Assembly: GCA_963781585.1 (NCBI GenBank) | Contig: CAWAGQ010000014.1 | Span: 64,001-128,000, forward strand | Source: an uncultured Gemmatimonadaceae bacterium | Lineage (GTDB): Bacteria; Gemmatimonadota; Gemmatimonadetes; Gemmatimonadales; Gemmatimonadaceae | Length of the DNA: 64,000 bases | Direction of reading: 5' to 3' | Shown here: piece by piece, positions 1 through 61,547 of the stretch | Numbering within the stretch: position 1 is the first letter of the stretch | How the letters are laid out: every line of letters starts with the position of its first letter | Program-made: the position numbers and the translations under genes | The notes under the pieces: model-generated | What the model saw: the letters and a program-made list of their open reading frames with translations, nothing else | Told to the model about the DNA's origin: nothing | Database searches by the model: none

Positions 1-623
1 TGATAGTTCTTGAAGTAGTCGGTCGGCGTCACCGTCGGCGAGATGTTCGTCCCCTGATCGTCCGACGCCGCGATTGGCGCGCTGTCGATGACCACGTTCA
101 GCCGTTGCTGTACGCCGGCGTCCACTGCGCCATTCATCTCCAGCAGCTCGGTCCAGCGCGCCGGAACCGCGTCGTTCAGGTAATCCTGCGACGGGTTGAG
201 CAGGTTCATGGGCGGATAGTGGAAAAGCTGGAGCCCCAGCGGATTCACCATCGCCATGCCCAGCGGCAGCATGAAGCGCCAGCCGTCGCTGGTCGGATCC
301 CAGAGCCCGGCCGTCTTGATGGCCGGGATATCCGTGAAGAGGGCGCCAGCGCCGTTCGCCAGGAACGCCGGCAGCCGGGTCTGATAGGTCGTCACGCCTG
401 GAGGCAGGTCGCCGGCGGCGCTGATGTCGAGAACGAGGCTCGATCCGTCCTGCCGTACTGCCGCGGACACGCCCTGGGCGACGTAGCCATCGCGATCCAG
501 TGTCTGCTGAAACCAGTGCAGAATGGTGTCGGACAGCGTCGCGCCGCTGCCGGGAACGTTTGGACACGAGTAGAGCTGCGTTAGGCGGTCGGCATCGCCG
601 AGGGATACCGAAACGGTAGTCAT
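1..623 (-). CDS. Hypothetical protein, 3' end truncated by the window edge
   Basis: Manual translation from ATG at 623 is open to position 1 (MTTVSVSLGDADRLTQLYSC...LFHYPPMNLLNPSQDYLNDAVPARWTELL...). Not in the ORF track because no stop lies in the window. Confidence 0.7.
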   Translation of the reverse strand, partial: MTTVSVSLGDADRLTQLYSCPNVPGSGATLSDTILHWFQQTLDRDGYVAQGVSAAVRQDGSSLVLDISAAGDLPPGVTTYQTRLPAFLANGAGALFTDIPAIKTAGLWDPTSDGWRFMLPLGMAMVNPLGLQLFHYPPMNLLNPSQDYLNDAVPARWTELLEMNGAVDAGVQQRLNVVIDSAPIAASDDQGTNISPTVTPTDYFKNY

Positions 624-834
624 GAGCGCCTTCGCGTGGGGGGGGGAAGCGGCCCCAGCCTGTCGGACGGGGCGCAATATACACACCCCGGCCGCCCTGT
701 CGACTTCAGCGGTGTCCCGAACCGACGCCCGGTGAATCGAGCCAACCAGTAGCGCGAGATCCACTGCGAGTCGGATGGTGCGCTTCGCGGCCGGACCGTG
801 CCCGGCAGCGAACGCGAGATTGGCGGGCGCTAAC

Positions 835-2769
835 CTACAGCGCCGCCACGAGCTGCCTGAGTGCCGTCAGCCGCTGCGTGAGCGCGTCACGCCCACCCAG
901 TTTCTCCATCCGTTGCAGGATCGGATCGGGAAGGAACTCGCGGTCCGTGCACTCGATCATCGCCGCCACTTCCTGCAGCTCGCGTTCGATGCCCTGGGTG
1001 GAAGGCATGAATCGCGCGACGACCTCGCGGAGCGCGTCGGCGGTGACCCCGCTCGCTCCCGCCAGCAGCGACCGCCGCCACGCCCGACCCACCATCCCTT
1101 CGATGTCGGCACCGGAAATCTGCCCCTTCTGCGGAATCGCCGGTACGTCCCCGGCGCGGAGCGTCGTGCCGAGCTTCTTCGCCATCACCACGAACAGCTG
1201 GCGGACTTCGTCCTCGTCGTGCGGATAGAACAGCGGAATGTGCACCTCGGCCCGCCCCTGCCGCTTGATGTCGATCGGCAGGAGATCGGGCCGCGCCGTG
1301 AGCAGCATCCACAGGATCCGCCCGCGATAGCGCGTGTCGCCCATCTGGGTGGCGATCATGCCGAACACCCGGCTCGACGTGCCCGAATCGCCCTCCATGT
1401 CGCGGTCGCCTAACGCCGCGTCGGCTTCGTCGATGATCACCATCACCGGCCCCATCGCCCGCAGCACCGACAACACGCGCTCGAGGTTTCCTTCCGTCTC
1501 GCCGACGTATTTGGACCGGAAGTTCTTCAGCATCACGCACGGAATGCCGATCTCGCCGGCGGCGCACATCGCCAGAAAGGACTTGCCCGTTCCCACCGGT
1601 CCGCACAGCAGGTATCCCATGGGCACGCAGTCGAGCGCGCCACGGGCCAGCAGCGCCGCGTCGTCCCGCAGCCGCTGCTTCGCCGCGTCGTGTCCGATGA
1701 CCGTGTCGAGCTTCCACTTCGACTCGACGAACTCCAGCAGGCCCTGCCCCTGACGTTCCAGCAGGCGTTTCTTCTGCGCGCGGAACAGCGGGGCGTCGAG
1801 CCGCTCGCCGCCATCGGCTGCCGAACGAATGAGCACCGACAGGTCGTTGAGCGACATGCCCGCGCTCAGCGTCGCCAGCTGCTCAGGCGAATAGTCCGAA
1901 ATCGCGCTCCAGGTGACCACGGCCGGAGCGTATTGGGGGGGCGCGAGCGACCCACCGCCGGCCGCGTCGGGACGCCCGATGGTAGCCTCCTTCGCCCCAC
2001 CGGTTCGCGGGGGGTCGGTCGCGCTGGGCGCCGAGGCCGCGTCGCGCACGAAACCGAGTCGTTCGCGCTCGCCAGGGAGCGGGACCTCGATGGTGGCGAC
2101 GTGCGGATTTCCCGTGATGCGGTCGCTCAGGTCGGTCCGGCGCTCATCGATCAGCACGAACGCCATCTCCAGCCGCTTCACCTGCGTGCTGGTGGCCCAG
2201 TTGAGCAGCGTGACCGCCATGCCAGACGCCGGAAAGCTCAGACGCCCCGGCTCGCCGGCCGGGAGGAGATACGACGCGCTGCTGACGATGAACGCGAAGC
2301 GCAACCGCTTCTCGGGCGGCGCCATGATGTTCTCGCGCACGAACAGGTCGATCACGTTGAAAACGATCGTGGGATCGTTCTTCAGCGTCGACAGGTCGCC
2401 GATGCGTCGGGTGGCCAGCGCCACCATGTCCTTCAATCGCCGCTCGTTGCGCCCGGCGAACGCGCGCAGCCCGCGCCCCAGGTCGTAGTGCAGGATGAGG
2501 TCCCACTGGCCGAACATCTGCTCGGACAGGAAGTCCACCAGCCCGCCGAACGGCGCGCGCTCGGGCGCATCCACATCGGCCAGCGCGACCAGGTCGTAGG
2601 CGTTCCCGTGCAGCACGAACACTGACGTGGTGCCGGAGAAGTACAGATCGGCGAGCGAAATCGCCCACCCCGGATACCAGGCAGGCAATTCGTCGCGACG
2701 GGGCCGACGTCGCTCCGACTCCCCGGTGTCCGTCACGCCGGCAGGTGTCGCGGCCGACTCAGTGCTCAC
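835..2769 (-). CDS. AAA+ ATPase, classic clade (Vps4/Cdc48-like module) with a long N-terminal region
   Basis: Walker A GPVGTGKS, pore loop SKYVGETE, Walker B VIIDEAD, second region of homology TARPDLLPIDIKRQGR. Probable GTG start at 2769 overlaps the upstream stop. Confidence 0.9.
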   Translation of the reverse strand: MSTESAATPAGVTDTGESERRRPRRDELPAWYPGWAISLADLYFSGTTSVFVLHGNAYDLVALADVDAPERAPFGGLVDFLSEQMFGQWDLILHYDLGRGLRAFAGRNERRLKDMVALATRRIGDLSTLKNDPTIVFNVIDLFVRENIMAPPEKRLRFAFIVSSASYLLPAGEPGRLSFPASGMAVTLLNWATSTQVKRLEMAFVLIDERRTDLSDRITGNPHVATIEVPLPGERERLGFVRDAASAPSATDPPRTGGAKEATIGRPDAAGGGSLAPPQYAPAVVTWSAISDYSPEQLATLSAGMSLNDLSVLIRSAADGGERLDAPLFRAQKKRLLERQGQGLLEFVESKWKLDTVIGHDAAKQRLRDDAALLARGALDCVPMGYLLCGPVGTGKSFLAMCAAGEIGIPCVMLKNFRSKYVGETEGNLERVLSVLRAMGPVMVIIDEADAALGDRDMEGDSGTSSRVFGMIATQMGDTRYRGRILWMLLTARPDLLPIDIKRQGRAEVHIPLFYPHDEDEVRQLFVVMAKKLGTTLRAGDVPAIPQKGQISGADIEGMVGRAWRRSLLAGASGVTADALREVVARFMPSTQGIERELQEVAAMIECTDREFLPDPILQRMEKLGGRDALTQRLTALRQLVAAL

Positions 2770-4719: not shown

Positions 4720-5561
4720 TCTCGCTGGAAGCGGTACGGGAAGAGGCCGCGCTGAAACCAGTACAGCAGGCGGTCGATGCCGTAGGCCAGCAACCCGATG
4801 AGGAACAGAATGGCGAAGATGTGTTCGGTGAGGCCCCGCCGCTGGCTCGTCATCAGCAGATAGCCCAGGCCGTGCTTCGCGTTCACCAGCTCGGCGAGCA
4901 TGATGTAGCCGAACGCGAGCCCGAACAGGCTGCGCAGGCTGCTGAAGATGTCGGGCAGCGCCAGGGCGATCAGTACCTTGGTGATCACCTGCCGCGACGA
5001 GGCGCCTAACGTCTGGGCGGTCTCGACGTACCGGTTCTGCACGCTGCTCACCGCCTGGGCCGCATTGAAGAACACGAACGGCACAGTGGAAATGAAGATG
5101 AACATCGTCTTCTGCGCTTCGTCGATCCCGAACCAGAGGATCGTGAGCGGGATCAGGACCGCCACCGGGATGTTGCGCGCGAAGACCGACAACGGGTTGG
5201 TCAGGGCGTCGAACAGCCGGTAGGCGCCGGCCAGGATGCCCAGTGGTACGCCGATGGCGATGGCCAGCAGAAAGCCGCTGAACACCCGCTGGAGCGTAGC
5301 CGCCACCGACGCGAGCAACGCCCGCTCACGGAACAGCGACGGCAGGCTGCGGATCACTTCGCCCGGACTCGGGAGGAGCACCGGCGAGACGAGGCGCGTC
5401 TCCGGCGTCTTCCCCAGCGTGAGCCCCCACCAGATCAGCACCGCGATGGCGATCCCCACCAGGCCAAGCGCGTTCCGGACCAGCACCGGAGGCTCGCTGC
5501 GCAGCGCGAACAGGCGCTGCAGCGATGACGGCTTGCGCTCCGCCACGGCGACGCCTTCCAC
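4716..5561 (-). CDS. ABC transporter permease, NitT/TauT family
   Basis: LPSPGEV, EAA-like loop ETAQTLGAS, AEL...GLG, multiple TM helices. Confidence 0.93.
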   Translation of the reverse strand: MEGVAVAERKPSSLQRLFALRSEPPVLVRNALGLVGIAIAVLIWWGLTLGKTPETRLVSPVLLPSPGEVIRSLPSLFRERALLASVAATLQRVFSGFLLAIAIGVPLGILAGAYRLFDALTNPLSVFARNIPVAVLIPLTILWFGIDEAQKTMFIFISTVPFVFFNAAQAVSSVQNRYVETAQTLGASSRQVITKVLIALALPDIFSSLRSLFGLAFGYIMLAELVNAKHGLGYLLMTSQRRGLTEHIFAILFLIGLLAYGIDRLLYWFQRGLFPYRFQRE

Positions 5562-9209: not shown

Positions 9210-9839
9210 CTAGCGGATCCCCAGCAGCTTGTGGGTCTGAATGCTCAGTCGCCAGCGGGGGTGCGCCAGGCAATACTCGAGCGCCGCGCGCGTGTTCTGG
9301 TCACGGCCCGGACCGTCCATGGGCTGGAGGAAGAAGTGCGCGAACGCCCAGTCGGCGAACTGCTCGGGCAGCGCCCCGGGCTGGGGATAGACCAGCTTCA
9401 GCTCGTGGCCGCTACGGAGTACGGTGTCCGCCCCGGCTTTCGGGCTCACGCAGATCCAGTCGATGCCGGGCGGCGCCGGGCGGGTGCCGTTGGTCTCGAT
9501 CGCGACTTCGAACCGCTCGGCGTGGAAGGCGTCCACGGCGGCGCGGTCCAGTTGCAGCAACGGCTCCCCGCCGGTGCAGACGACGTACCGGTCGCCCCCG
9601 GAATCGTTAGGCCAGGCCGCGCCGACGGCGCCCGCCAGGTCGGCGGCTCCCGTGAACCGTCCCCCGTCCGGTCCCACCCCCACGAAGTCGGTGTCGCAGA
9701 AGTCGCATATCGCCGACGCGCGATCCTCCTCGCGGCCCGTCCACAGGTTGCATCCGCTGAACCGGCAGAACACCGCCGGCCGGCCGGTGCGCGACCCCTC
9801 CCCCTGCAGCGTGTAGAAGATCTCGCGGACCGTGTACAT
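9210..9839 (-). CDS. queE: 7-carboxy-7-deazaguanine synthase (radical SAM)
   Basis: EIFYTLQGEG, Cx14CxxC variant (CNLW...CDFCDT), TGGEP, IETNGT, QTHK. Confidence 0.95.
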   Translation of the reverse strand: MYTVREIFYTLQGEGSRTGRPAVFCRFSGCNLWTGREEDRASAICDFCDTDFVGVGPDGGRFTGAADLAGAVGAAWPNDSGGDRYVVCTGGEPLLQLDRAAVDAFHAERFEVAIETNGTRPAPPGIDWICVSPKAGADTVLRSGHELKLVYPQPGALPEQFADWAFAHFFLQPMDGPGRDQNTRAALEYCLAHPRWRLSIQTHKLLGIR

Positions 9840-12360: not shown

Positions 12361-13466
12361 CGGCCGTCGCTCCCGTGTTCGACCAGCAGCGCGCCATGGC
12401 GGGCGCGGGTGATGACCACGCCTTTGCCGACTACGTCGCCGCTTGGACGGAAGCGGATCGCTCCGGTCACGCCGGCGAATGCCGAGCCGTCGCCTAACGA
12501 CGTGAGCCAGCGGCGCACCGCGGCACGCGACGGGCCGGCCTCCTGGATGGCGCGCGCCACCAGCATGGTCGCGTCATAGGCAAGTGCCGCGTTACCGTCG
12601 GGTTCGAGGTGGTACTTCTCGCGAAAGGCCTTCACGAAGCGTTGCGCGGCGGGACGGGGGTCCTGCGCACTGAACGGCGTCGCCACGAAGGCCCCTTCGG
12701 CGGCGGCCGTGTCGGCCACGATGCTGCTCCAGCCATCGCCGCCGATAAACGCACTGGCCAGATGCTGACGCCGCGCCTCGAGCAGAATCGACCGGCCGGA
12801 TGCGTTCGTTCCGGCCACGAACACCACGTCGGGCGAACGGGAGGCAAGGTAGCTGACGTACGGCTCGAAGTTCGCGTCGCCGTTGCCCGGGATTGGATCC
12901 ACGGCGACGATCTCCCCGCCGAACGCGCCGCGGAACGACTCGGTGAGCCCGCGTCCGTAGGCCGTGTTCTCGTACAGAATCGCCGCGCGATGCCAACCGC
13001 GGGCATCGGCGAAGCGCGCGATGGTCATGCCGTTGGCCGAGTCGCTCGAGATCACCCGGAACACCCAGGGAGAAATGCCGCTCAGGTCGGGAGAACTGGC
13101 CGTGGTCGATACCGCGGGCAGTCCCTTGTCGTAGATCCTCGCCGCCGCCACCATCGCCCCCGACGTCACGTGCCCGACCACCGCCACGACCGAGCGATTG
13201 GCGTAGAACTCGCTCGCAATCGCAACCGCCTTCCCGCCGTCGGCGTGGTCGTCGCGCGCGATGACCACGAGTCGCCGACCTCCCACGCCGCCCGCAGCGT
13301 TGATCTCTTCCAACGCGAGATCCAGCCCACGCTTGTTCATCGCCCCGTACAACTCGGTCCACGGACCGGCCGTCGCGATCACGACCGGCGAGGAGTTCCG
13401 TGCGCAGGCCAGGGATGTCAGGAGGGCGGCAAGAACAACGGAGCGGCGAAGCACCGCGAGGGTCAT
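12357..13466 (-). CDS. Branched-chain amino acid-type (LivK-like) periplasmic binding lipoprotein
   Basis: Lipobox [31 protein letters not shown]. Probable ATG at 13466. Confidence 0.9.
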
Positions 13467-15280: not shown

Positions 15281-15409
15281 CAAGGATGAGGGTCAATCGT
15301 TAGGCAGTCCCGGTCGACCGTGGCCGCCGGCCGTCGCGCGCTCGCCTTGGTTGGACGATCGAGCGATTGGTGTGGAACATGTATCCGAGCCGGCGGGAGG
15401 CCGGCCGAC

Positions 15410-18214: not shown

Positions 18215-18371
18215 CGCCCGGTGCTGGATCCGGGCGCCGGCGCGGCGGAGTTCGACAGTCCCTCGGAGCAGGGAGCCGGGCGGCTCTCCCGCGAGCGCCG
18301 GCCCGCGGCCCGCAATCCCCCCCGCATCGGCCGACTCCGCCCGTTAGGCTGGCCCGGGCGGTCGAGACAAC

Positions 18372-19754
18372 CTAGTCCCCGTTCAGTCCATCTACGAGTC
18401 CCAGCACGACATCGTTCACATTGGTGCCCGTTAATCCCGTGCGCAGCAGCCCGCCCACCGCATCGAGCGATGCGTACGATGCGTGGGCGCCAAGATCGGA
18501 CGCGGGGTCCCGCCCGCGGCCCGCGATTCGCGACCAGGTGGTCGCATCGACCACCGCGCCCGCCGCGTCGGTGGGACCATCGCGACCGTCCGTCCCGGCC
18601 GCCAGCACGGTGATCCCTCGCGCCGCCGATCCTGCCCGGTGCAGCGCAGCCGCGCAGGCGAGCGCCAATTCCTGGCACCGCCCCCCCGGCGCGGCGGGGG
18701 ATGGGCCAAGACGCACGGTCGTCTCGCCTCCCCAGATTGCAAGCACTCGCGGCCGCGCGCCTAACGACTGACCTCGCGCGCGCTCCCGCGCTCGAACCAG
18801 CTCGCCGGCCACCATCGCGCCGGCGGCGGCGGCATCACCGCGCAGCGCGGCGGGTTCGACCCGCACCGCGGTGATGGCCGCCGCCGCCGCCGCCCGTTCG
18901 GCGCCGCGGAGCGCGTCACCGTTGTCCAGAATTACCGACACCGTCGTCCGGGCGAACATTGCGTCGCCCGGCTTCGGGGTCTCCGCCTCCGTCCCCGCGG
19001 CCACACGACGCAAATAGGCGCGCACACTGGAGGGCAGTGCCGGTTCGAGCTGGCGCTCGGCCAACAGAGTGAGCAGCCCGTCCGCCGTCAGGCGATCCGG
19101 CGTGCATGGGCCGGAGCCGATATGCGCCGGGTCGTTCCCCGGAACGTCGGACACGATCAGGCAGTGTGTCCGGTCCCCGCTGAGCGCGGCGGCGAGTCGC
19201 CCCGCTCCCCACCGCAGGACGCGTTTGCGAACCGCGTTCATGGTCGTGATGTCCACGCCCGAGGCGAGCAGCAGGGTGAACAGCTTCTGCAGGTCCGCGA
19301 ACGTCACCGCGTCCACCGGGCCGGCAATCAGACTGGTCGTGCCGCCCGATAGCAGCACCAGGACATCGGCACCCTTCGGGATCCCCGCCACCACTTCTCC
19401 CAGCCGGATCGCGGCCTGCCGCGACCCCTCGCCCGGGACCGGGTGCTCTCCCGTCAGCGATTCGAGCGCGGGAATCGCGGTCGATGGATGATCGGGAGCG
19501 ACGATTGCGCCGCCGGCCAGCGAAAGATCGCGAGCGCGTAGTGCTTGAGCCGCGCCGGCGCACATTGCATGGGCCGCCTTTCCGACAGCGACCACCCACA
19601 CCGGGCCACCAACCGGGCCGAGGGCGGCGACTGCCTGCCGTGTCGCGTGCTCCGCGTCGGCCGCCCGGACCGCTGCCGCGAAGAGGCTCTCGAGAAGGAC
19701 GCGCGCGGACGAAGGGACCGTTGACTGACTCCCCACGCCGTCACGCCCCGGCAT
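18372..19754 (-). CDS. Glycerate kinase, MOFRL family
   Basis: VGKAA, HPVP, LSGGT, SDVPG, GSGP, GGETTV, GGRCQE, GTDGRDG, TGTNVND. Confidence 0.92.
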   Translation of the reverse strand: MPGRDGVGSQSTVPSSARVLLESLFAAAVRAADAEHATRQAVAALGPVGGPVWVVAVGKAAHAMCAGAAQALRARDLSLAGGAIVAPDHPSTAIPALESLTGEHPVPGEGSRQAAIRLGEVVAGIPKGADVLVLLSGGTTSLIAGPVDAVTFADLQKLFTLLLASGVDITTMNAVRKRVLRWGAGRLAAALSGDRTHCLIVSDVPGNDPAHIGSGPCTPDRLTADGLLTLLAERQLEPALPSSVRAYLRRVAAGTEAETPKPGDAMFARTTVSVILDNGDALRGAERAAAAAAITAVRVEPAALRGDAAAAGAMVAGELVRARERARGQSLGARPRVLAIWGGETTVRLGPSPAAPGGRCQELALACAAALHRAGSAARGITVLAAGTDGRDGPTDAAGAVVDATTWSRIAGRGRDPASDLGAHASYASLDAVGGLLRTGLTGTNVNDVVLGLVDGLNGD

Positions 19755-21167: not shown

Positions 21168-23959
21168 GCGGGTCGCGCCAATTGCCTCAGGACGTACTGC
21201 AGGATGCCGCCGTGGCGCAGGTAGTGCATTTCCTCGGGCGTGTCCACCCGCGCCTGCACCGTTAACGTGATGCTCGTGCCGTCAGCGCTCCCCGCGGTCA
21301 CAGCGAGTCGGGCCCGCGGCTTCAGCTGGTCGGACAGACCTTCGATCTCATAGGTCTCGAATCCCGAGAGACCGAGCGAATGCCGGGTCTGCCCGTCGGT
21401 AAACTCGAGCGGAAGCACCCCCATGCCGATGAGGTTGGATCGGTGAATGCGCTCGAACGACTCCGCGATCACTGCCCGTACGCCGAGGAGTGCCGTCCCC
21501 TTGGCGGCCCAGTCGCGCGACGATCCCGTTCCATACTCCTTGCCCGCGATGATCAGCAGCGGGACGCCCTGCCGCTGATATTCCATCGCCGCGTCGTAGA
21601 CGGGCACCGGATCGCCTCCCGGTGCCGTGGCCGTCCACCATCCCTCCTTCCCCGGGGCGAGCTCGTTCCGCAGCCGGATGTTCGCGAACGTGCCTCGCAT
21701 CATCACCTCGTGATTCCCGCGCCGCGATCCGTAGGAGTTGAAGTCCTTCCTCTGCACGCCCTGCGACAGCAGCCACTGACCGGCCGGACTTCGCTCGGCG
21801 ATCGACCCCGCCGGCGAGATGTGATCGGTGGTGATGGAGTCGCCGTACATGCCCAGCACCCGCGCCCCGGTCACGGCCCGAATGGGTGAGGGCTCGCGGG
21901 TCATGTTGTCGAAGAACGGCGGATGTTTCACGTAGGTCGACGAGTCGTCCCACGCATAGCGGTCGCCGGACGGCACCGGCAACGACTGCCACTGCTCGTC
22001 GCCGGCGAACACGTTGGCGTACTCGGCGCCGAACATCTCACTCTTCACCGAGCGCAGGATCTCCTCCTGCACCGCACTGGGTGACGGCCAGATGTCGCGC
22101 AGGAATACCGGACCCTGGGAGCCGATGCCTAACGGCTCGCGTTCCAGGTCGATGTCCATGCGGCCGGCCAGGGCATACGCCACCACCAGCGGCGGCGAGG
22201 CCAGGTAGTTGAATCGGGTCTGCGGGTTGATGCGACCCTCGAAGTTCCGATTCCCGGAGAGCACCGCGGCCACGATCAGCTTGCCGTCGTCGACCGCGTG
22301 GGCCACGGTCTCGGGCAGGGGACCGGAATTGCCGATACAGGTGGTGCAGCCGTATCCCACCACCGCGAAGCCGAGCTGCTCCAGGTCGGACAGGACGCCC
22401 GACTTGCGGAAGTAATCGGTGACCACCTTCGACCCGGGCGCTAGTGACGTCTTGACCCAGGGTTTCGACTGCAGCCCCTTCCGGACGGCGTTGCGCGCGA
22501 GCAATCCGGCCGCGAGCATGACCGACGGGTTTGACGTGTTCGTGCAACTGGTAATGGCGGCGATGACAACCGACCCGTGGCGGAGGGTATACGGCATCTC
22601 CGACTCCTCCGTCAGGACGGTGGCGTTCTCCTGGGCGGCGCCCTCCGCGTCCATCTTCTTCGCGTCGGCGGTGGTCGGACTGTCGTTGCTCGCCGTAGCG
22701 GCGGCGGGACTCGATGCCGGGACCGCGCCGGCCAGTCGTCGCAGCTCGGCGCCCAGCGCCTCTTCGAACATCCTCTTCGATTGTCGGAGCGGGATCCGGT
22801 CCTGGGGCCGCTTGGGTCCGGCCAGACTCGGTTCCACGCTTGCCAGATCGAGCTCGACGATGTCCGTGAAGACCGGGTCAGGCGTGTCGTCGGTGCGGAA
22901 GATCCCCTGCTCCCGGCAGTAGGCCTCCACGAGCTGCACCTGCTCCTCGCTCCGTCCCGTGAGGCGCAGGTAGCGGAGAGTCTCCACGTCCACGGGAAAG
23001 AACCCCATCGTGGCGCCGAACTCCGGAGACATGTTTCCGATCGTCGCGCGGTCGGCCACTGACAGGGTGGAAAGCGCGGAGCCGAAGAACTCAACGAACT
23101 TCCCAACGACTTTTTTCTTCCGCAGGATTTCGGTGACCGTCAGCACCAGGTCGGTGGCCGTGGCGCCCGCCGGCAACTTCCCGCGGAGCTTGAATCCCAC
23201 CACTTCGGGCACCAGCATCGAGACCGGCTGGCCCAGCATTGCCGCCTCCGCCTCGATACCGCCAACCCCCCACCCCATCACGCCCAGGCCGTTGATCATC
23301 GTGGTGTGAGAATCGGTCCCAACCAGCGAGTCGGGGTAGGCGAGTGTCTCCTTGCCGTCGCCGTTGACGGGTCTGGTGAAGACCACCCGTCCGAGGTACT
23401 CGAGGTTGACCTGATGGCAGATGCCCGTCCCGGGAGGGACCACCCGGAAGTTCCGGAAGGCATTCTGGCCCCATCGCAGAAACTCGTAGCGCTCGCGATT
23501 GCGCTCCACCTCGAGCGCCGTGTTGATGAGGAGCGATGCTTCCGATCCGTATTGATCCACCTGGACGGAGTGGTCGATGACCAGGTCCACCGGTTGGAGA
23601 GGGTTGATTTGCGTCGCGTCACCGCCCAGCTGGACGATGGCGTCGCGCATGGCAGCGAGGTCCACGACGCAGGGGACGCCGGTGAAATCCTGGAGGAGTA
23701 CGCGGCTCGTTCGGAACGCGATCTCCTTTTCTGTCCGGCCTTTGACATCCCACCGGGCCAGCGCTTCGATATCCGACGCCTTTACCGAGGCACCATCTTC
23801 ACCGCGAAGGAGGTTCTCGAGGAGGATCCTGAGAGAGAATGGCAACCGGTCCGCGTTGCCACCGGAGACACTTTGCAGAGCAGCGAGCCGGAAGATCGTG
23901 TAGCGCCGATCGCCCACTGCAAGCGTCGAGCGCGCGTTGAACGAATCTGGGTGGGACAT
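21164..23959 (-). CDS. acnA: Aconitate hydratase A
   Basis: [62 protein letters not shown] at 23959. Confidence 0.98.
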
Positions 23960-24447: not shown

Positions 24448-25512
24448 CTACGCCGCGGTGACCGCGGTCAACGCTCCCGTTGGGCAGTGGCGTACGAAGT
24501 CACCGTCGGCCGGAGACCACTCAGCCACCCGAGAGCGCGGAACCGCTTTGCCGGCCTTGTCGAGCGCCATCGTGCGCGGGGCGTTCGCCACGCACAGTCC
24601 ACAGCCGTTGCACCGCGCGCGATCGACGCGGATCTGAACGCGCCGGCGCGGGAAGATCCGCCCGCGTGCCCCGATGCAGGTCTCGAGGTCCCGCAGCGCC
24701 TCGGTCGCGGCCACGTAACCGGACTCGATGAACTCGGTCGCGGCGCCGAACCGGAACCAGGCGTGCTGGGCTACCTTGGGACGAATGAGGATCATCGGCG
24801 GACCCTCCCAGCGTGCCAGAGGGATGCCCTGAAGGGCGTGCATCATGACCATCGCGGCGCGCATGGAGATGGACGCGAACCCGCTGGCCGCCACCGTCGT
24901 GTCGGGTGGCAGTTCACCGTTGCCTACGTCAACAGCCACAATGAGGTCCGATTCCCGAGCCACCAGGCCCACCGGGAGGTTGTCCACCGTGCCGCCGTCG
25001 ATGCAGAACCGGCCGTCGACGCGACCGGGCGGGAAGAATCCAGGAAGCGCACAGGACGCGTAGACCGCGTCGTCGACGAACACGTCGCGAAGACCCGGAA
25101 GTCCCCACACCACCTGGGTGCCTAACTGCACGTCCACGGTGTTGACGTACAGCGGCATGGGAATCTCGTCGAACCGCACGTGGGGGACGATGGAGTGAAC
25201 CAGCGCACGCAACGGCTCTTCCAGATAGATTGACGGCGAGTGCATCCGCTCCAGCAGCATCCCCACGTGATTGATCCGAAGGAGATCGCGCCGGCGGAGT
25301 CGTCGGGCGCGCTCGGCGAGGTCCGACACGCTGGCACCGGTGGCGGTCGCGGCGCCCAGCATTGCTCCGACGCTGCTGCCGGCGAGAATCGCCGGCCGGA
25401 TCCCGCGCTCCTCGAGCGCCCGCAGCACCCCGATGTGCGCAAACCCCTTCAGGCCACCCCCGCCCAGGACGAGAGCGATACGAGCAGGCGTTCGGTGTTT
25501 CGCGTTAGGCAT
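24448..25512 (-). CDS. Patatin-like phospholipase fused to a C-terminal ferredoxin-type Fe-S domain
   Basis: LGGGGLKG, GSSVG nucleophile elbow, DGG; C-terminal CNGCGLC...CPTGAL. Confidence 0.88.
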   Translation of the reverse strand: MPNAKHRTPARIALVLGGGGLKGFAHIGVLRALEERGIRPAILAGSSVGAMLGAATATGASVSDLAERARRLRRRDLLRINHVGMLLERMHSPSIYLEEPLRALVHSIVPHVRFDEIPMPLYVNTVDVQLGTQVVWGLPGLRDVFVDDAVYASCALPGFFPPGRVDGRFCIDGGTVDNLPVGLVARESDLIVAVDVGNGELPPDTTVAASGFASISMRAAMVMMHALQGIPLARWEGPPMILIRPKVAQHAWFRFGAATEFIESGYVAATEALRDLETCIGARGRIFPRRRVQIRVDRARCNGCGLCVANAPRTMALDKAGKAVPRSRVAEWSPADGDFVRHCPTGALTAVTAA

Positions 25513-35750: not shown

Positions 35751-37289
35751 TCACGGCTCGGCCAGGATCTTTCTGACACGGGCGAGCACGTCGGTTGCGG
35801 GTCGCAGCCGTCCGCCCGGCGCGCGCAGCCCGGTGACTGCGTCGTAGTCACCGGCTCCTTCCGCGACGAAACCAGCAACCCGTGGAAGGGTCGTCGCCCA
35901 CGCCAGCATGCCCCAGAGGGACGCGCCCTGGTTCCGCTCGCCGAACAGGCGGGGATAGGCGCCGGTTCCGAGCACCCAGGCCGGTTTCCGTACGTTCTCC
36001 AACCAACGGTCCGCGACGAGCATTCGCGACCGGATTGAGGCGCCGCCGTCGTAGGAGGGGTACAGCGCGATCGCGACGTCGTCGATCGTCGTGGTGGGAC
36101 TCGCGGCCCACGCGAACAGCTCGCTGTCGGCAGGGGTGAAGGCCGACGCCGACACCGCCACGCGGGTCGCCGGACGGGCGGCATGCACCAGGGTGGCGGC
36201 GTCCCGCATGTACTGGCGCCACCAGCGCGGCGACACGCTGCCTAACGCCGCCGATCCGGCGAGACAGGGATCGAGCGCCGGGAACACCACGTCGGGGTGG
36301 AGGCGCCGCACCACCCGATCGAGGGCGGCCAGCCGCGTGCGCTGGTACTCCTCCGGATCGACACGAAAGCGCTGGGCGTCACCCACGCCGTATCCGAGGG
36401 CGACGAGCAGACGCACCCCGGATCGCCGCCGGTCTTCCAGCGCCCGGGAGAGCGAGTCGAGGGCCGCGGTGGTGACGCCTCCAGTCGGCTGGATGACGAC
36501 ACTTACTGCCTGCGCACCGATCGAGTCGACCAGCGCGAGATCCGCGAGTACCGCCGGCCGCGGCGGAGGCCCGGACAGTTCAGGGAAGATTCGCACGCCG
36601 ATCATGAAATCGCCCCGTGGCCGCTCCTGCAGCCGGTCGCCCGCGAATGCCGCAAACGTGGTCACCGCATGCAGCGCGCCGGGATACTCGACAGCGAACA
36701 GCACCAGCGTCGCCGTCGCCCAGAGCGCCAGAGCTACGCGGAAGACCTTCCCGGATCGATAGGGGGTGGGATAGGAGGGGGATAGGACGGGGACCTGGAG
36801 CGCCAACGGGGACGTCAGCGCGCTACGACCCCACACGAACGCGATCACGCTCGCATGCGACACGGCGAACGCCATCACTGGGGCCGGAGGCTCCGGCATG
36901 TGGGTGGTCAGAAAGCGCGCCAGGGCGCCCACGAAGAGGATCACGTTGTAAGCCGCGATGGGGAATCCCAGGAACGGGGCCACCGTACCGCGCCCGAGCG
37001 CGTAGAGTGCCTGCAGTGCGCAGAGGCACGCCACCACCGGCCAGAGCCAGTCGATGATGTAGACTGCGCGGCCGTTCAGCACGGTGCTCGCGACCACGGC
37101 CACGACCACGCCGGGAACCACGAGCAGCGACGACAGCGCGGTCAGCCCGAGAAAGACCGGTGAGCCTCGCCGGTTGTTGAGGATTCGACCCGCCACGAAC
37201 AGGTCCCAGGCGAGCACCACCGCGTCAATCGCGTAGAAGGCATGCGTGGGCGACGTCACCAGCGCAGTCTGCGCGAGCACGATGCGCAA
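35751..37289 (-). CDS. Hypothetical protein with a multi-TM N-terminus and a soluble C-terminal domain
   Basis: About 6 hydrophobic segments followed by an alternating beta/alpha domain ending GLR...GR.RPA. Confidence 0.75.
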   Translation of the reverse strand: MRIVLAQTALVTSPTHAFYAIDAVVLAWDLFVAGRILNNRRGSPVFLGLTALSSLLVVPGVVVAVVASTVLNGRAVYIIDWLWPVVACLCALQALYALGRGTVAPFLGFPIAAYNVILFVGALARFLTTHMPEPPAPVMAFAVSHASVIAFVWGRSALTSPLALQVPVLSPSYPTPYRSGKVFRVALALWATATLVLFAVEYPGALHAVTTFAAFAGDRLQERPRGDFMIGVRIFPELSGPPPRPAVLADLALVDSIGAQAVSVVIQPTGGVTTAALDSLSRALEDRRRSGVRLLVALGYGVGDAQRFRVDPEEYQRTRLAALDRVVRRLHPDVVFPALDPCLAGSAALGSVSPRWWRQYMRDAATLVHAARPATRVAVSASAFTPADSELFAWAASPTTTIDDVAIALYPSYDGGASIRSRMLVADRWLENVRKPAWVLGTGAYPRLFGERNQGASLWGMLAWATTLPRVAGFVAEGAGDYDAVTGLRAPGGRLRPATDVLARVRKILAEP

Positions 37290-41215: not shown

Positions 41216-41300
41216 GAGGCGCGGCCGCCAGTCGGCAGAGCGGAGGGCGCGGGCCAGGGCGACGGGGAGCCATGTTCGCCCGTAGTCGTTAGGCGGCCCC

Positions 41301-47820: not shown

Positions 47821-49785
<1,965 letters not shown>

Positions 49786-49796
49786 CGGCTGAGGAA

Positions 49797-49951: not shown

Positions 49952-50218
49952 GTGGACCAGAACAGCGCAATCGTTGCCTTTGCCGGCATCGTCTGTGGCT
50001 CGATTCTCATCGGCACCGTCATCGCCACCATCGGCCGAGCGGTGGTGGCCCACCGGCGTGCGGGCGCGCTGCCGGACACGACCGTGGCGCGCCTGGATGA
50101 GCGTCTGCTCCACATCGAGCAGGCCGTGGACGCGATCGCCGTCGAAGTCGAGCGTGTCGCCGAAGCCCAGCGCTTCACCACCAAACTCCTCTCCTCCCGC
50201 GAGGCCCAACGCACCTAA
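49952..50218 (+). CDS. Small TM plus coiled-coil protein
   Basis: RBS GGAGGA, GTG start, [19 protein letters not shown]. Confidence 0.8.
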
Positions 50219-51412: not shown

Positions 51413-52654
51413 TCAGTTGCGGCGCAGCACCAGGGCCGCGTTCACGCCGCCGAAGCCGAACGAGTTGGTGATGGCGTGCTCGGGGGCGGCTGCGCGGCCC
51501 ACGCCTGGCACGTAATCCAGGTCGCACTGGTCATCGGGTACCACCAGGTTCACGGTGGGCGGCAGCCACTCGCGCTGGAGACTGAGCGCGCAGATGGCGG
51601 TCTCGATGGCCCCCGACGCGCCTAACGCGTGGCCGTAGTATCCCTTGGTGCCGCTCACCGGCACCCGATACGCGTCGTCGCCGAGCACGCGCTTGATGGC
51701 CAGTGTTTCGGTGGTGTCGTTGAGCGGGGTCGAGCTGCCGTGGGCGTTGACGTAGTCCACGTCGTGCGCCGCCAGGTGCGCGTCATCGAGAGCGAGGCGC
51801 ATGGCGCGGGCGGCCTGCGACCCGTCCGGCCGCGGTGCCGTCATGTGGTGCGCGTCGTTGGTCACGCCGTAGCCGAGGATCTCGGCATAGACCGGCGCGC
51901 CTCGGGCGAGGGCACGGGTGCGCTCCTCGAGAATCAAAACCGCCGCACCTTCTCCCATCACGAACCCGTCGCGGTCGCGGTCGAAGGGCCGGGATGCGGT
52001 GGTCGGATCGTCGTTGCGGGTGGACATCGCCCGGATCAGGGAAAAGGCGCCGTAACAGAGCGGGGAAAGCGGCGCCTCCGCACCGCCCGCGATCATCACG
52101 TCGGCATATCCGTCGCGGACCTGCCGGAACGCGTCGCCGATCGCAATCGTGCCCGACGCGCAACTCATCGCGTTTGTGGAATTGGGTCCGCGCACGTCGA
52201 ACTCGATCGCGATGTTGCAGCTGGCCGCTCCGCCGAACACGGCCAGCGCCAGCATCGCGTCCACACCGCGCAGACCGTGGCAGACGTAGGCCGAGTACTG
52301 CGACTCGGCATAGGCCACACCGCCTAACGCCGATCCCATCATCGACCCGATGCGGTCCCGGTCCTCGACCGCAAGGTCGAGCTGCGCGTCGTCGAGCGCC
52401 ATCCGCGAGGCGGCAACCGAAAACTGCGCGAACCGCTCCAATCGCCTGGCGCGCTTCGCGTCCAGATGGTCCGCGGCGTTGAAATCGTTCACCTGCGCGG
52501 CATTCCGGCTGCGAAACACCGACGCGTCAAAACGCGTGACCGGGGCCACCGCCGACCGCTGGCTCCGCAGTCCCTGCCACAGCCCCTCCCGGCCAAGACC
52601 GATCGGGGTGATGGCGCCGATACCGGTCACAACGACTCGTCGATGCATGGGCAC
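51413..52654 (-). CDS. Beta-ketoacyl synthase (FabF/KAS II-like)
   Basis: [45 protein letters not shown]; Cys-His-His triad intact. Confidence 0.93.
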
Positions 52655-52753
52655 GCGGGTTACCGGATAGGGTCAGGTGGATGTCGCGCGTCTGGCTCGG
52701 CGGATCGAGGTCGGAACCGGCGCGCCGATACGCCGCGCGGGAAGCCAGAGGCG

Positions 52754-58572: not shown

Positions 58573-59919
58573 GTGACGGCTTCACCAGGATTGGCGACGT
58601 CGCTGCGCCGCGAGCTCGGGCTGTTCTCGGCGGCGATGATGGTCGTGGGCGGGATCATCGGCAGCGGCATCTTCTTCACGCCGGCCGAGGTGGCGAAGGC
58701 GTTGCCGGCGGGGCCGTGGGTGCTGGGTGTGTGGGGGCTGGGGGGGGTGGTGGCGCTGGCCGGGGCGTTCACGTACGCCGAGCTCGGGGCGATGATGCCT
58801 AACGCCGGCGGCGGATACTTCTACATCCGGCAGGCATTCGGCGCGCTTCCCGCATTTCTGTGCGGCTGGATGACGATCCTGAGTGTCGCCACCGGCTCGC
58901 TGGCGGCGGTGGCGATGGGGTTCGCCGGGTACGCGGCGCGATACGCGGACCTGACCCCGGTCGGCGGTCAGATCGGGCTGGCGGCGCTCACGATCGTGGT
59001 CCTGGGAGCGACCAACTATGCGGGCATCCGGCCTGGCGCCGTTGTTCAGAATCTGCTCACGGTGGCCAAGATCGTGGCGCTGGGTGGATTGATCGTGACC
59101 GGGTTCGTGCTCTGGGCGCATGTCGGCGCACCGTTGCCGGTGGCCGATGCGCCGGCGCCCCGAGGGTCGCTGGTCGCTGGTCTGGCGGCGGCATTCGTGG
59201 CGGTGCTGTTCACGATCGGTGGATGGCAGCAGCTCAACATGGTCGGCGGGGAAATCCGCGATCCGGAGCGGACCGTACCGCGGGCGCTCTTCCTGGGCGT
59301 GATGATCGTGATCGTGATCTATCTGGGCGCGAACGCCGTCTATCTGCACGTGCTGGGTCGCGACGGGCAGGCTGCGAGCACCGCGGTCGCGGCGGACACC
59401 GCCGCACGACTCATCGGGCCGGTTGGCGGCAGTCTGATTTCCCTCGGCGCGATGCTGTCCATCCTCGGCTTCGTGAACGTCGCGATCATGGGCAACACTC
59501 GCATCCCCTACGCGATGGCGCGTGACGGGTTGTTCGTGCAGGCCGCGGGGCGACTCCACCGCCGGTTCGCCACGCCGCACATTTCGATCGTCATCATCGT
59601 CGTGTGGACGCTGGTGCTGCTTTTCGGGACCCGTGGCAACCTGGGCGCGCTCCTCTCGGGCGTTGTCTTCGCAGACTGGATTTCCTTTGGTCTGGCGGGG
59701 GCGAGCGTGTTCGTTCTTCGGCGGACGATGCCAACGGCGCCGCGTCCGTATCGGGCATGGGGCTATCCGTTCGTGCCCGGACTGTTCGTCCTGTCGGCGA
59801 TGATCGGCGTGACCAGCGCGTATGTGGCGTCACCGCGCACGTCGCTGCTGGGTACGGGGCTCCTGGTGGCCGGTGTGGCCGCGTATCTCCTGTGGTGGCG
59901 TCGCCCTCGAGCGGCGTAA
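58573..59919 (+). CDS. Amino acid permease (APC family)
   Basis: IIGSGIF, YAELG, E.RDP.R..PRA, RPYRAWGYP. Confidence 0.93.
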   Translation: MTASPGLATSLRRELGLFSAAMMVVGGIIGSGIFFTPAEVAKALPAGPWVLGVWGLGGVVALAGAFTYAELGAMMPNAGGGYFYIRQAFGALPAFLCGWMTILSVATGSLAAVAMGFAGYAARYADLTPVGGQIGLAALTIVVLGATNYAGIRPGAVVQNLLTVAKIVALGGLIVTGFVLWAHVGAPLPVADAPAPRGSLVAGLAAAFVAVLFTIGGWQQLNMVGGEIRDPERTVPRALFLGVMIVIVIYLGANAVYLHVLGRDGQAASTAVAADTAARLIGPVGGSLISLGAMLSILGFVNVAIMGNTRIPYAMARDGLFVQAAGRLHRRFATPHISIVIIVVWTLVLLFGTRGNLGALLSGVVFADWISFGLAGASVFVLRRTMPTAPRPYRAWGYPFVPGLFVLSAMIGVTSAYVASPRTSLLGTGLLVAGVAAYLLWWRRPRAA

Positions 59920-60234: not shown

Positions 60235-60354
60235 GGGGAGCCAGCGGGCGTCTTCGCGAGAGCGACCCCTGAAGGCGGGTTGCTGCATGCGGGAGGACCA
60301 GGTCGGGAGGTGCTGCAGGGCCCGCGTACCGCAGCGCAGCGCGGCGCTACGATT

Positions 60355-60627
60355 CTATGCCAGCCACTGCCTGATGCGATACATCTCCTCGCTCACTGTG
60401 CGCTGGGCGGCGAGGGCCTGCTCCATCTGCTCGAGCAGCTCGTCGGGAGGGACCTCGTAATCCTCCCCTTCGGTGATGGCGGTGTGTGACGTCCATTCGC
60501 GAACGCGCACCAGGCCGTCGTGGGGGCGGCCGATGAGCAACAGACGTTCGGGCTGCCCCTTGCCCGATCCGACGGCGACGGTGAGGAATTCGCCCTCCCC
60601 CAGGGGGCCGGGGCGCGGGTCGGTCAT
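60355..60627 (-). CDS. Hypothetical protein
   Basis: ATG overlaps the heme O synthase stop (ATGA). Confidence 0.7.
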   Translation of the reverse strand: MTDPRPGPLGEGEFLTVAVGSGKGQPERLLLIGRPHDGLVRVREWTSHTAITEGEDYEVPPDELLEQMEQALAAQRTVSEEMYRIRQWLA

Positions 60628-61547
60628 CGATGAAGCAGGCTGGACGCCGCGGACCACAGGCCGGACCGTCGATCGAGCACCATGACCACGAAGAGCAGGG
60701 CGAGGTAGAGCAGGGAATACTTGTAGAGCGCCCAGGCGTACCGGGTCCACGGCTGTCGGGTGCGAACCCGCCAGACCCCGACCAGCAGGATGCTGCCTAA
60801 CGTGATGGCGCCAAGCAGGTAGACGGGTCCGAACGCGCCGAAGGTCACCGGAATGATTGTGAGCGCGACCAGAATGAGACTGTACCAGACCATCTGGTCC
60901 ATCGTCTCGCGCTCCCCCCAGACGACCGGGGCCATCGGCACGCCGGCGCGCCCGTAGTCTGCCTGCTTGAGGAGCGCCAGCGCCCAGAAATGGGGCGGGG
61001 TCCAGTAGAACACGATCAGAAAGAGGTACAGTGCCGTGAGGTCGATCGAGCCTGTGACCGCCGCCCAGCCAACCAGCGGCGGAAACGCTCCCGCGGCGCC
61101 GCCGAGCACGATGTTTTGCGGTGTGGCGCGCTTGAGCCACCGGGTGTAGACGAACACGTAGAAGTAGAAGCCGCCCAGCGCCAGGCCCGCCGTGAGCACG
61201 TTGACGAACTGCGCCAGGAGCCAGGTGGCGGCCACCGCCAGCGCGATGCCGAATGCCAGTACCGAAAGCGGCGACAGGCGGCCGCTGGGGATGGGACGCA
61301 GTCTGGTTCGCGCCATCTTGTCGTCGATATCGCGATCGAGATACATGTTGACCGCGTTGGCGCCACCGGCCATCAGGTAGCCGCCGACCATGACCAGCAG
61401 GACCTGCAGCAGGCCTGGTGTCCCGGCGACGTACATCGGCGCCACGGTAGTGACCAGCAGCAGCGAAATGATGCGCGGCTTGGTGAGCGAAACGAAGTCG
61501 CGCACCGCGCCAGTTCTCTGCGCTTCCCCGACTGCGATGCCGCTCAC
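60624..61547 (-). CDS. ctaB: Protoheme IX farnesyltransferase (heme O synthase)
   Basis: LTKPRII, N.YLDRDID..M.RT..RP.PSG, YT.WLKR, WTPPHFWAL. GTG at 61547. Confidence 0.96.
   Translation of the reverse strand: MSGIAVGEAQRTGAVRDFVSLTKPRIISLLLVTTVAPMYVAGTPGLLQVLLVMVGGYLMAGGANAVNMYLDRDIDDKMARTRLRPIPSGRLSPLSVLAFGIALAVAATWLLAQFVNVLTAGLALGGFYFYVFVYTRWLKRATPQNIVLGGAAGAFPPLVGWAAVTGSIDLTALYLFLIVFYWTPPHFWALALLKQADYGRAGVPMAPVVWGERETMDQMVWYSLILVALTIIPVTFGAFGPVYLLGAITLGSILLVGVWRVRTRQPWTRYAWALYKYSLLYLALLFVVMVLDRRSGLWSAASSLLHR

Follow-up and report, generated by a model that had tools for sequence, protein, structure and literature searches.

An 8-base word, GCCTAACG (reverse complement CGTTAGGC; 7-base core GTTAGGC/GCCTAAC), recurs throughout the genome of an uncultured Gemmatimonadaceae bacterium at many times its expected frequency. 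It was noticed in a stretch of 64,000 nucleotides (the window: GenBank GCA_963781585.1, contig CAWAGQ010000014.1, positions 64,001 to 128,000), which is G000:C14:64001-128000 in the numbering used here, G000 being the whole assembly of 5,715,271 bases in 17 contigs. The original prediction, made from the letters of the window alone, was that the word is a lineage-specific, genome-wide DNA signal written into genes against codon preference. That the word is a genome-wide DNA-level signal overriding codon preference is confirmed, and there is a new result: Gemmatimonadota and Verrucomicrobiota both include scattered lineages in which one and the same 8-base core is hyper-abundant. Both phyla are abundant in soil, and in these lineages the word saturates every replicon and some of the phages. 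A literature search, from which subscription journals largely fell outside, found no account of the word as a genomic signal, and the string matches it listed are primers.

Copies in the window and in the whole genome

The window contains 19 exact copies of GCCTAACG, 11 on the plus strand and 8 on the minus strand, at exactly the positions first claimed for them. In 100 dinucleotide-preserving shuffles of the window the mean is 1.13 (standard deviation 1.04) and the largest count is 4, so that 0 of 100 reach 19. Six near matches that keep CCTAAC had also been claimed, and all are there (25121, 26677, 35717, 48623, 50214, and 51331); in total CCTAAC occurs 25 times in the window against 6.3 expected. 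The estimate of about 69% guanine plus cytosine (GC) agrees with the measured 0.65 to 0.70, and the codon contexts had been read correctly, with xCG TTA GGC found 10 times, CCT AAC and GTT AGG 2 times each, and CTA ACG once. Four of the 19 copies lie at the edge of, or outside, called open reading frames (ORFs). The copies are as follows.

579..586, minus strand: in a minus-strand open frame, CGC CTA ACG (Arg-Leu-Thr)
1408..1415, plus strand: in a minus-strand ORF, GCG TTA GGC (Ala-Leu-Gly)
5004..5011, plus strand: in a minus-strand ORF, ACG TTA GGC (Thr-Leu-Gly)
9605..9612, minus strand: outside called ORFs
12492..12499, plus strand: GTC GTT AGG CGA, in an open frame that lies before a chemoreceptor gene (ATG at 12360) or at its 5' end
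15298..15305, minus strand: outside called ORFs, directly upstream of a solute-binding-protein gene (13586-15283, minus strand)
18342..18349, minus strand: across the edge of a minus-strand ORF (17624-18343)
18759..18766, plus strand: in a DUF4147/MOFRL gene (minus strand), TCG TTA GGC (Ser-Leu-Gly)
22127..22134, plus strand: in the aconitase gene (21164-24082, minus strand), CCG TTA GGC (Pro-Leu-Gly)
25503..25510, minus strand: in a minus-strand ORF, ATG CCT AAC GCG (Met-Pro-Asn-Ala)
31913..31920, minus strand: in an M16 peptidase gene (30508-33432, plus strand), GCG TTA GGC
33215..33222, minus strand: in the same M16 peptidase gene (30508-33432, plus strand), GCG TTA GGC
36240..36247, plus strand: in a minus-strand ORF, GCG TTA GGC
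41287..41294, minus strand: right where a plus-strand open frame begins, TCG TTA GGC
49395..49402, plus strand: in an AMP-binding (acetyl-CoA-synthetase-like) gene (47821-50214, minus strand), GGC GTT AGG CGG (Gly-Val-Arg-Arg)
51620..51627, plus strand: in a minus-strand ORF (51416-52672), GCG TTA GGC
52322..52329, plus strand: in the same minus-strand ORF (51416-52672), GCG TTA GGC
58797..58804, plus strand: in a plus-strand ORF, ATG CCT AAC GCC (Met-Pro-Asn-Ala)
60795..60802, plus strand: outside called ORFs

The aconitase of the window has its best relatives, at 71-78% identity, in metagenome-assembled genomes labeled Gemmatimonadaceae, in keeping with membership of that family.

The whole of G000 has 1,442 copies, 718 on the plus strand and 724 on the minus strand, at 0.19 to 0.34 per kb on each of the 17 contigs. 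An order-0 model expects 217 and an order-3 Markov model 51, making the observed count 28 times the order-3 expectation. The Markov check that had been proposed with the prediction gives the word the highest z-score of all 8-mers in G000 under the order-3 model. Genes were called as 3,277 stop-to-stop ORFs by codon log-odds, covering 75.6% of the genome; these calls are crude and are not a curated annotation. Within them, 20 synonymous-codon shuffles give a mean of 49 copies against 1,015 observed (20-fold), which bears out the claim that codon preference is overridden, the null model here being codon-aware and not dicodon-aware. The enrichment had been exposed to refutation by its absence from the rest of the genome and from relatives, and it is present in both.

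The coding contexts of the genome are those of the window, with xCG TTA GGC in 664 copies, xxG CCT AAC Gxx in 241, xGC CTA ACG in 59, and xxC GTT AGG Cxx in 44; the remaining frame on either strand is blocked by a TAA or TAG. About 70% of the copies are inside called ORFs, and 434 are at ORF edges or outside. The proposed look at TTA codons finds 666 of the 1,387 in G000 (48%) within the word. Pro-Asn sites that could hold the word without a change of amino acid do so in 32% of cases, [SPTA]-Leu-Gly sites in 15.6%, x-Leu-Thr sites in 2.7%, and x-Val-Arg sites in 1.5%. Stop codons are used too, with the word overlapping 57 of 1,032 TAG and 30 of 242 TAA stops (87 in total). Called ORFs (0.234 per kb) and the rest of the genome (0.225 per kb) are equally dense.

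The unit is the bare word

The aligned flanks of the 1,442 copies exhibit a three-base coding periodicity only. With no information in the flanks, the unit is the bare word, and the idea that it is a piece of a larger repeat or mobile element is ruled out. Likewise, it does not belong with repetitive extragenic palindromes, miniature inverted-repeat transposable elements, or Ssn-related repeats, in view of the absence of flank conservation and the location of those 70% or so of copies within called ORFs. Ssn-related NTS/dRS3 repeats, which are cut by GIY-YIG single-strand nucleases, resemble it as abundant genomic repeats; they modulate transformation, and their dedicated reader gene was found by co-occurrence, but they are ~30-bp intergenic hairpins around genes, whereas the word is a bare 8-mer without flanks or structure (PMC11893778).

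Within the word, positions 2 to 7 (CCTAAC) are strict, while A is tolerated at position 1 (ACCTAACG, 183 copies) and position 8 (79 copies). Single-mismatch neighbors are mostly enriched, as are ACCTAACG at 5.4, GCATAACG at 4.7, and GCCTAACA at 3.5 times expectation, and variants at positions 2 and 7 are under expectation (0.22 to 0.70). The second of these neighbors, GCATAACG, is a dispersed 8-mer in its own right, with 180 copies in G000 and flanks that are not conserved; it is not a simple decay product of the word, because a change at position 3 is non-synonymous in the word's main coding contexts.

This neighbor spectrum bears on whether a cell-wide bias in repair or gene conversion, acting on whatever DNA replicates in the cell, turns near-words into the word, for example through a methyltransferase paired with a mismatch endonuclease, the scheme put forward for cyanobacterial HIP1. 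A bias of that sort would suit the shortage of variants at positions 2 and 7 and the enrichment of phages, plasmids, and chromosome alike, and its distribution would follow the presence or absence of the enzyme pair. Most single-mismatch neighbors are nevertheless enriched and not depleted, the position-2 depletion is not limited to the transition that repair of deaminated bases would predict, and the neighbor pool (10 to 40 expected each) is far too small to have supplied 1,400 words at a single stroke. Nor would this process lead to the mutual repulsion of copies described below. Very-short-patch-type repair is rejected on the neighbor spectrum, and biased conversion in general is very unlikely. 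The likeness to HIP1 that had been suggested does not hold in one essential respect: both are hyper-abundant, written into genes, and patchy among lineages, but HIP1 is palindromic and the word is asymmetric (GCCTAACG vs CGTTAGGC).

Orientation, spacing, and conservation

Replication direction was assigned from 100-kb smoothed GC skew. By this assignment, the leading strand has 394 copies of GCCTAACG and the lagging strand 455 (46:54). The antisense to sense ratio of GCCTAACG is the same in genes co-oriented with replication (261:111) and in head-on genes (166:69), and outside called ORFs the strand split is 117:125. Orientation follows coding constraints alone, and this excludes polar signals, such as Chi or the FtsK-orienting polar sequences (KOPS). 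The conclusion that the word is not polarized had been reached earlier from the 11:8 split in the window; the replichore test agrees with it, although a split of that size in one window is too weak an argument by itself. Chi, of RecBCD/AddAB, and KOPS with the architecture-imparting sequences of FtsK do share with the word the character of an over-represented 8-mer at similar density (1 per 4 kb here) in which phages can be enriched, but they are strongly skewed to the leading strand, unlike a word whose orientation is set by gene strand. Apart from the word, the sign of the GC skew changes near 24-28 kb of the window and near 575 kb of G000:C4, which are possible origin or terminus regions.

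Copies repel one another at short range. Gaps under 300 bp number 29 where 105 +/- 9 are expected, and those under 500 bp number 68 where about 172 are expected, with a surplus at 1-4 kb; the depletion is present in the direct and in both inverted arrangements. Strict regularity is absent, as the gaps have an overall coefficient of variation of 1.0. The longest two gaps free of the word, of 38.7 and 38.4 kb, are slightly above the Poisson maximum of about 32 kb. Reading such gaps as foreign islands is wrong, since these two carry core genes: AlaRS, RecA, RecX, FtsK, and AccC in one, and ArgG, MurB, and MnmG in the other. Close pairs of words were considered as operators of a reader gene and discarded, the adjoining genes being ordinary. 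One of the two longest gaps is included in a 50-kb core-gene stretch (G000:C8:278000-328000; ArgG, HisA/F-type, MurB, MnmG) with GC of 0.60-0.64 against 0.67 for the genome; the stretch may be of foreign or chimeric origin, the assembly being rated 7.2% contaminated.

Comparison with the same-genus genome G001 (390 kb aligned at 87.4% identity), which is the ortholog check asked of the prediction, finds 81 of 102 G000 copies and 81 of 94 G001 copies kept, where all 8-mers are kept at 40.5%; the word is about twice as conserved. Divergence near conserved copies gave no clear signal in this comparison (identity 0.889 within 100 bp vs 0.874 overall). At 51 sites that can be aligned to two word-poor relatives, Leu-Gly is kept in 25 of 38 and Pro-Asn in 4 of 13. 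The word-poor genomes spell the 25 kept Leu-Gly sites CTC GGC (15), CTG GGC (6), or with another non-TTA codon (4), and never TTA GGC.

A site that binds a nucleoid-associated or chromosome-organizing protein, and that selection maintains at more or less even spacing on all replicons, would suit much of this: the short-range repulsion with its surplus of 1-4 kb gaps, the equal density in genes, spacers, and all replicons, the neutral orientation, and the purifying conservation. It is at odds with the coefficient of variation of 1.0, and with densities that extend from 0.25 to 1.5 per kb in the word-rich genomes, a difference of up to about 6-fold, while close relatives are without the word. 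A nucleoid protein that has recoded thousands of codons is not known to us, which weighs further against such a site, and we consider it improbable.

Distribution in Gemmatimonadales

In each genome, the word count was compared with that of a reversed-sequence control. Among 31 relatives, the 8-mer is above its control in 7 (G000, G001, G005, G009, G014, G015, and G030), two more are intermediate, and the remainder are below. A census of the order, by 7-mer counts in 201 genomes at least 80% complete, finds the 7-mer above control in 16: 12 of 91 in family f1 (G000 counted), 4 of 21 in family f3, and 0 of 89 in family f2. The order tallies take in G008, G088, and G206, which are all word-poor and none of which carries a claim by itself. 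In the remaining genomes, the ratio of 7-mer to control is typically 0.05-0.15. The division reaches below the genus, as in g42, where one genome is poor (99 copies) and three others are very rich (5,256-6,209 copies); the within-genus contrast sets G149, poor, against G121, G153, and G209, rich. No other hyper-abundant 7- or 8-mer is found in the word-poor G003 and G018 (200 kb each, top 8-mer z below 9), which speaks against dialects of the Neisseriaceae kind in those two.

All replicons of a word-rich genome are filled. G161 has replicons of 5.31, 1.11, and 1.04 Mb and a 21-kb contig, and stretches sampled from these four have 0.67, 0.71, 0.78, and 0.95 words per kb, the eighth base being G in 90% of copies. 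The smallest contig (G161:C4, loci L187 and L188; 20,952 bases) repeats its own sequence after about 15.0 kb and is therefore a circle of some 15 kb. Its products include an Arm-type integrase and a DUF5906 primase-like protein. At 0.95 words per kb, this integrative element is as dense as the chromosome.

The same core in Verrucomicrobiota

A gapped two-word pattern searched in one genome per species gives at least 119 stretches, and flanks were taken for 80 of these loci. Among the 80, dense loci come from two groups only, and loci of all other taxa have 2-6 copies each. The dense taxa are as follows, the last three being Verrucomicrobiota.

Gemmatimonadaceae/Gemmatimonadota: 24 loci, 379 kb, 483 7-mers (1.28 per kb), reversed control 65
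Chthoniobacterales: 25 loci, 384 kb, 452 7-mers (1.18 per kb), reversed control 86
"Verrucomicrobiae": 11 loci, 222 kb, 187 7-mers (0.84 per kb), reversed control 55
"Spartobacteria": 3 loci, 61 kb, 44 7-mers (0.73 per kb), reversed control 19

Whole genomes give the same picture when the 8-mer is counted.

G210, Verrucomicrobiota: 2,136 copies, reversed control 247
G211, Verrucomicrobiota: 2,254 copies, reversed control 250
G212, Verrucomicrobiota: 3,510 copies, reversed control 357
G213, Verrucomicrobiota: 676 copies, reversed control 397
G214, Gemmatimonadaceae: 7,821 copies, reversed control 424

Patchiness recurs here, the word being above control in 8 of 101 genomes of the order of G210 (Chthoniobacterales). 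The word is genome-wide, as had been claimed, with copies on all 17 contigs of G000, but it is not lineage-specific in any simple sense, occurring in patchy lineages of two phyla and in phages. The two phyla differ slightly in the extent of the word. The logo for Gemmatimonadota is G(.81)CCTAAC G(.84) with a free ninth base, and that for Verrucomicrobiota is G(.83)CCTAAC G(.87)A(.86), a 9-base word GCCTAACGA with A at the ninth base in 86% of copies. Recent gene transfer between the phyla is rejected as a source: 667 kb of Verrucomicrobiota loci match G000 in ordinary conserved genes only, the best matches reaching 76% amino-acid and 75% nucleotide identity. A core common to two phyla calls for a mobile reader or for a common external anchor.

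Phages and CRISPR spacers

Viral contigs were scanned for two words 200-230 bases apart, yielding 76 loci, most of them with those two copies only. Because the sample was conditioned on the word, it establishes that word-rich phages exist, and their frequency cannot be read from it. Three dense groups are true phages by PHROGs. The densest (L247, L216, and L267) encodes virion proteins and an endolysin, with 42 words in 19.5 kb against 1 for the reversed control, and its 1.9-2.5 words per kb match the richest hosts; in L247 the words are within ORFs, in structural and lysis genes, and in all four coding contexts. A second group (L214, L226, L227, and L251) has a tail protein, an O-like replication protein, Gam, and NinB, with 0.9-1.3 words per kb. 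The third, L224, encodes a major head protein, portal, protease, and endolysin; its density is 0.74 words per kb, and its words are mostly in intergenic inverted repeats made of TTAGGC-like units. These repeats probably act as bidirectional terminators. At 3500-3570, 3925-3975, and 10000-10290 of L224, tandem TTAGGC-like and CCCTAAC-like units form strings that look like telomere repeats.

Density is confined within the L247 family. Among 80 loci related to the L247 structural protein, the rich ones are three near-identical contigs only, and the other 78 L247-related loci (852 kb) have 22 words against 74 controls. As to hosts, the L224 portal protein was not found in five word-rich genomes, and the L247 structural protein has one weak relative, in a contig labeled Gemmobacter from a metagenome-assembled genome. 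The GC of the phages, 0.59-0.64, is compatible with Verrucomicrobiota and with some loci of Gemmatimonadaceae. A prophage test by HK97-type capsid was positive in 1 of the 31 relatives only (G030), and the contig concerned has 2 words in 17 kb. The clustered regularly interspaced short palindromic repeat (CRISPR) spacers of G000, an unbiased but tiny sample, contain GTTAGGC in 2 of 82 (2,616 nt). G000 has CRISPR arrays at C5:440684-443353 and C13:529149-531871, of 44 repeats each, and none of their spacers matches elsewhere in G000. A third periodic array, of 77 units, is at G000:C7:396085-401570.

These data are where a protective self tag would have to be judged, that is, a host nuclease or silencing system that spares word-dense DNA in the manner of Chi but free of orientation, the system itself being mobile. 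Chromosomes, plasmids, and successful phages would all be under selection to have the word. Phages as dense as L247, L216, and L267, with words within genes, are what it would lead to, and so are the two spacers with GTTAGGC and the 15-kb element of G161 at 0.95 per kb; the shortage in the 78 more distant relatives of L247 is of a piece with this. A mobile system would further explain the patchy spread, down to the poor G149 beside the rich G121, G153, and G209 and across to a second phylum. Yet the sole known precedent, Chi, is strongly polar and the word is not, a naive host acquiring the system would be without the tag, and no candidate system turned up. The phages were moreover found by way of the word, so how general their enrichment is cannot be read from them, and the G030 contig encoding a phage capsid holds just its 2 copies. 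On balance a protective tag is unlikely, if not remotely so.

Integron attC sites and the integrase

In word-poor relatives, the few copies that remain cluster on one strand, every 500-650 bp. These same-strand islands are not tandem-repeat genes, having neither long ORFs nor tandem repeats, and are integron cassette arrays instead. Small ORFs are separated by 90-136-nt elements that begin with GCCTAACG and end with TGTTAGGC or TGTTAGAC, and these elements are integron attC sites. The attC inverse core is defined as RYYYAAC and the core as GTTRRRY (PMC3053210). The elements carry these cores, and the hyper-abundant word is thus a canonical attC core. The 7-base core is letter-identical (GTTAGGC/GCCTAAC), and arrays of the same lineages use it with G at the eighth base. 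All 27 distinct attC sites collected from relatives (85-105 nt) start with GCCTAACG and end with TGTTAG[GA]C, the collecting pattern itself having required those flanks, so that the set is not unbiased. Large homogeneous arrays in word-poor Gemmatimonadales include L083 (G021:C95:1-20000), L084 (G019:C3), and L085 (G021:C43). The match extends to the second phylum, where attC sites beside intI in G210 and G213 (four sites only) begin with ACCTAACGAG; the two bases after the inverse core (GA) match the longer word of Verrucomicrobiota.

The copies of G000 are not themselves attC sites, which are imperfect palindromes of 57-141 nt between the two cores, located downstream of a cassette ORF. Pairs with the right spacing number 23, of which 8 form strong hairpins, and a profile finds 8 hits, together under 3% of copies; more than 97% have no hairpin, L box, or cassette, and they sit in housekeeping genes. 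G000 does have an intI gene (C7:185885-186829) and a small cassette array (C13:313350-316814). The genes in its cassettes were inspected for a reader, finding ordinary cassettes and IS91-type and IS21 elements only. A tyrosine recombinase of 301-303 amino acids is present in three identical copies (G000 C7:172407-173237, C7:183006-183836, and C13:309021-309851), and the copy in L160 adjoins an IS91-type Y2 transposase.

The integrase IntI could in principle be both the reader and the driver, with scattered words as half-sites of its R box that it makes or keeps. Besides the identity with the canonical inverse core and core and the 27 of 27 attC sites, the abundance of integrons speaks for this: TIGR02249 (IntI) is over its cut-off in 18 of the 31 relatives and 44 of 101 genomes of the Chthoniobacterales order, against 0 of 14 control genomes. 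The Gemmatimonadales are in this respect unusually integron-rich. In the Chthoniobacterales order, IntI at E = 1e-40 or better is in 7 of 8 rich and 40 of 93 other genomes, a weak association that is confounded by kinship. Neither the presence nor the phylogeny of IntI tracks the word, however. Over the cut-off are 4 of 7 word-rich Gemmatimonadales and 14 of 24 others; IntI is present in the poor G149 as well as in the rich G121, G153, and G161, and was not found in the rich G209. A maximum-likelihood tree of 21 IntI sequences mixes rich with poor genomes: the labels require six changes on it, which is no improvement on shuffles, and the G000 IntI is sister to that of the word-poor G002 with support 100/99. 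Three IntI genes of word-rich Chthoniobacterales-order genomes have an internal stop. As for mechanism, IntI insertion sites in genomes are reported to need only GWT (10.1101/2022.09.11.507474), we see no strand-exchange route that would write 7-8 bases without leaving a cassette, and attC-like pairs make up less than 3% of the G000 copies. IntI as the driver is largely refuted and most improbable. Full-length Verrucomicrobiota IntI matches with a single in-frame stop (G295:C26, G243:C2, G277:C2, G213:C10, G221:C1, and G248:C1) may be pseudogenes, recoded genes, or sequencing errors.

A candidate reader of duplex DNA

The symmetry of the word and its spread over all replicons point to a reader of duplex DNA that ignores orientation, and to a force acting on every replicon of the gene pool. 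Comparison with known systems leads us to propose, tentatively and at somewhat less than even expectation, that the word is the recognition word of a sequence-specific double-stranded-DNA reader, a self tag resembling an uptake signal. The reader would recognize GCCTAACG/CGTTAGGC in duplex DNA, indifferent to orientation. Independent point substitutions, many in number, would have built up the word at sites where the encoded protein allows them, and a transformation machinery would prefer word-bearing DNA, as with the uptake sequences of Neisseriaceae and Pasteurellaceae. Word-bearing alleles would then be imported and recombined more often than word-less ones, and molecular drive, with or without selection, would fill every replicon, including resident mobile elements and temperate phages.

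The DNA uptake sequence (DUS) of Neisseriaceae is read by the minor pilin ComP, and the uptake signal sequence (USS) is its counterpart in Pasteurellaceae. The word is like DUS and USS in being short and non-palindromic, with hundreds to thousands of copies on both strands and no replication polarity. It is like them also in its placement in genes through codon choice and in spacers, its conservation at orthologous sites, its short-range evenness, and the presence of genes for the competence channel. Known uptake sequences are described as mostly inside ORFs, without orientation bias, and with even spacing noted (PMC1939737). The word is unlike them in having only 8 bases (9 in Verrucomicrobiota), in a core common to two phyla, in the rarity of terminator-forming inverted pairs in G000 (they are seen in the phage contig L224), in the lack of an alternative word in two word-poor relatives, and in tested pilins that do not co-vary with it.

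The competence genes were examined as discriminators and rejected in that role. ComEC (PF03772) and a ComEA-type HHH_3 domain (PF12836) are each in 30 of 31 relatives, the same genome missing both. In G000, ComEC is at C4:402177-402965 and the ComEA-type HHH_3 at C14:144267-144446, and there are nine prepilin-like ORFs. Four G000 pilin or minor-pilin proteins were uninformative, with similar identity to relatives in rich and poor genomes or an inconsistent pattern.

The uptake model is the best fit to the abundance through silent changes, the symmetry, the placement in genes and spacers, the conservation, the repulsion, and the competence genes, and it has an easy evolutionary path. Several points count against it. 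ComEC, ComEA, and the four tested pilins or minor pilins are found in word-poor genomes too, and G003 and G018 have no other word in its place. The depletion of the word that would be expected in foreign DNA is not seen, the largest word-free gaps being those with core genes. Inverted pairs closer than 150 bp are rare in G000 (8 among 1,425 gaps). A phage density as high as that of the richest hosts fits a protective tag at least as well. Under independent drive, the core in the second phylum would be a 1-in-thousands coincidence. For both phyla, uptake of the word, competence, and the receptor are what we infer. To our knowledge, uptake-type self words are known experimentally from two proteobacterial families only, and the origin and readers of such words are still debated.

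Uptake by itself leaves both the sharing of the word by two phyla and its identity with the attC core unexplained, and a mobile or attC-anchored reader would cover both. Such a reader, recognizing the attC R box, might be an uptake receptor or a small mobile system, possibly itself an integron cassette. The DNA of hosts, plasmids, and phages would then have been recoded to resemble a site that arose for recombining cassettes; we give this version a low probability. If true, the attC anchor would explain one word in two unrelated phyla, an unchanging word while lineages gain and lose it, and extra word bases that follow the attC flank of each phylum. The DtxR/IdeR iron box also contains GTTAGGC, a reminder that coincidences between the word and known motifs are not rare. 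Natural transformation is reported to feed cassettes to a chromosomal integron in Vibrio cholerae (PMC12614218), and a link between transformation and integrons is biologically plausible. Were the reader an attC-recognizing uptake receptor, word-flanked integron cassettes would be a privileged import cargo, and were it a mobile gene, it would hop between integron-rich soil phyla.

Horizontal gene flow in soil may be channeled by a tag common to both phyla, and transformation, phage-host conflict, and the traffic of integron cassettes may be linked. The patchy distribution, with its contrasts within genera, gives a clean comparative handle on the reader gene.

A second over-represented word family

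In both G000 and G001, the word family that ranks second in over-representation is a tandem 7-base unit, (CCAAAGG)n. It occurs in the window at 33516-33570, AGGCCAAA has 328 copies in G000, and G001 has dozens of such arrays.

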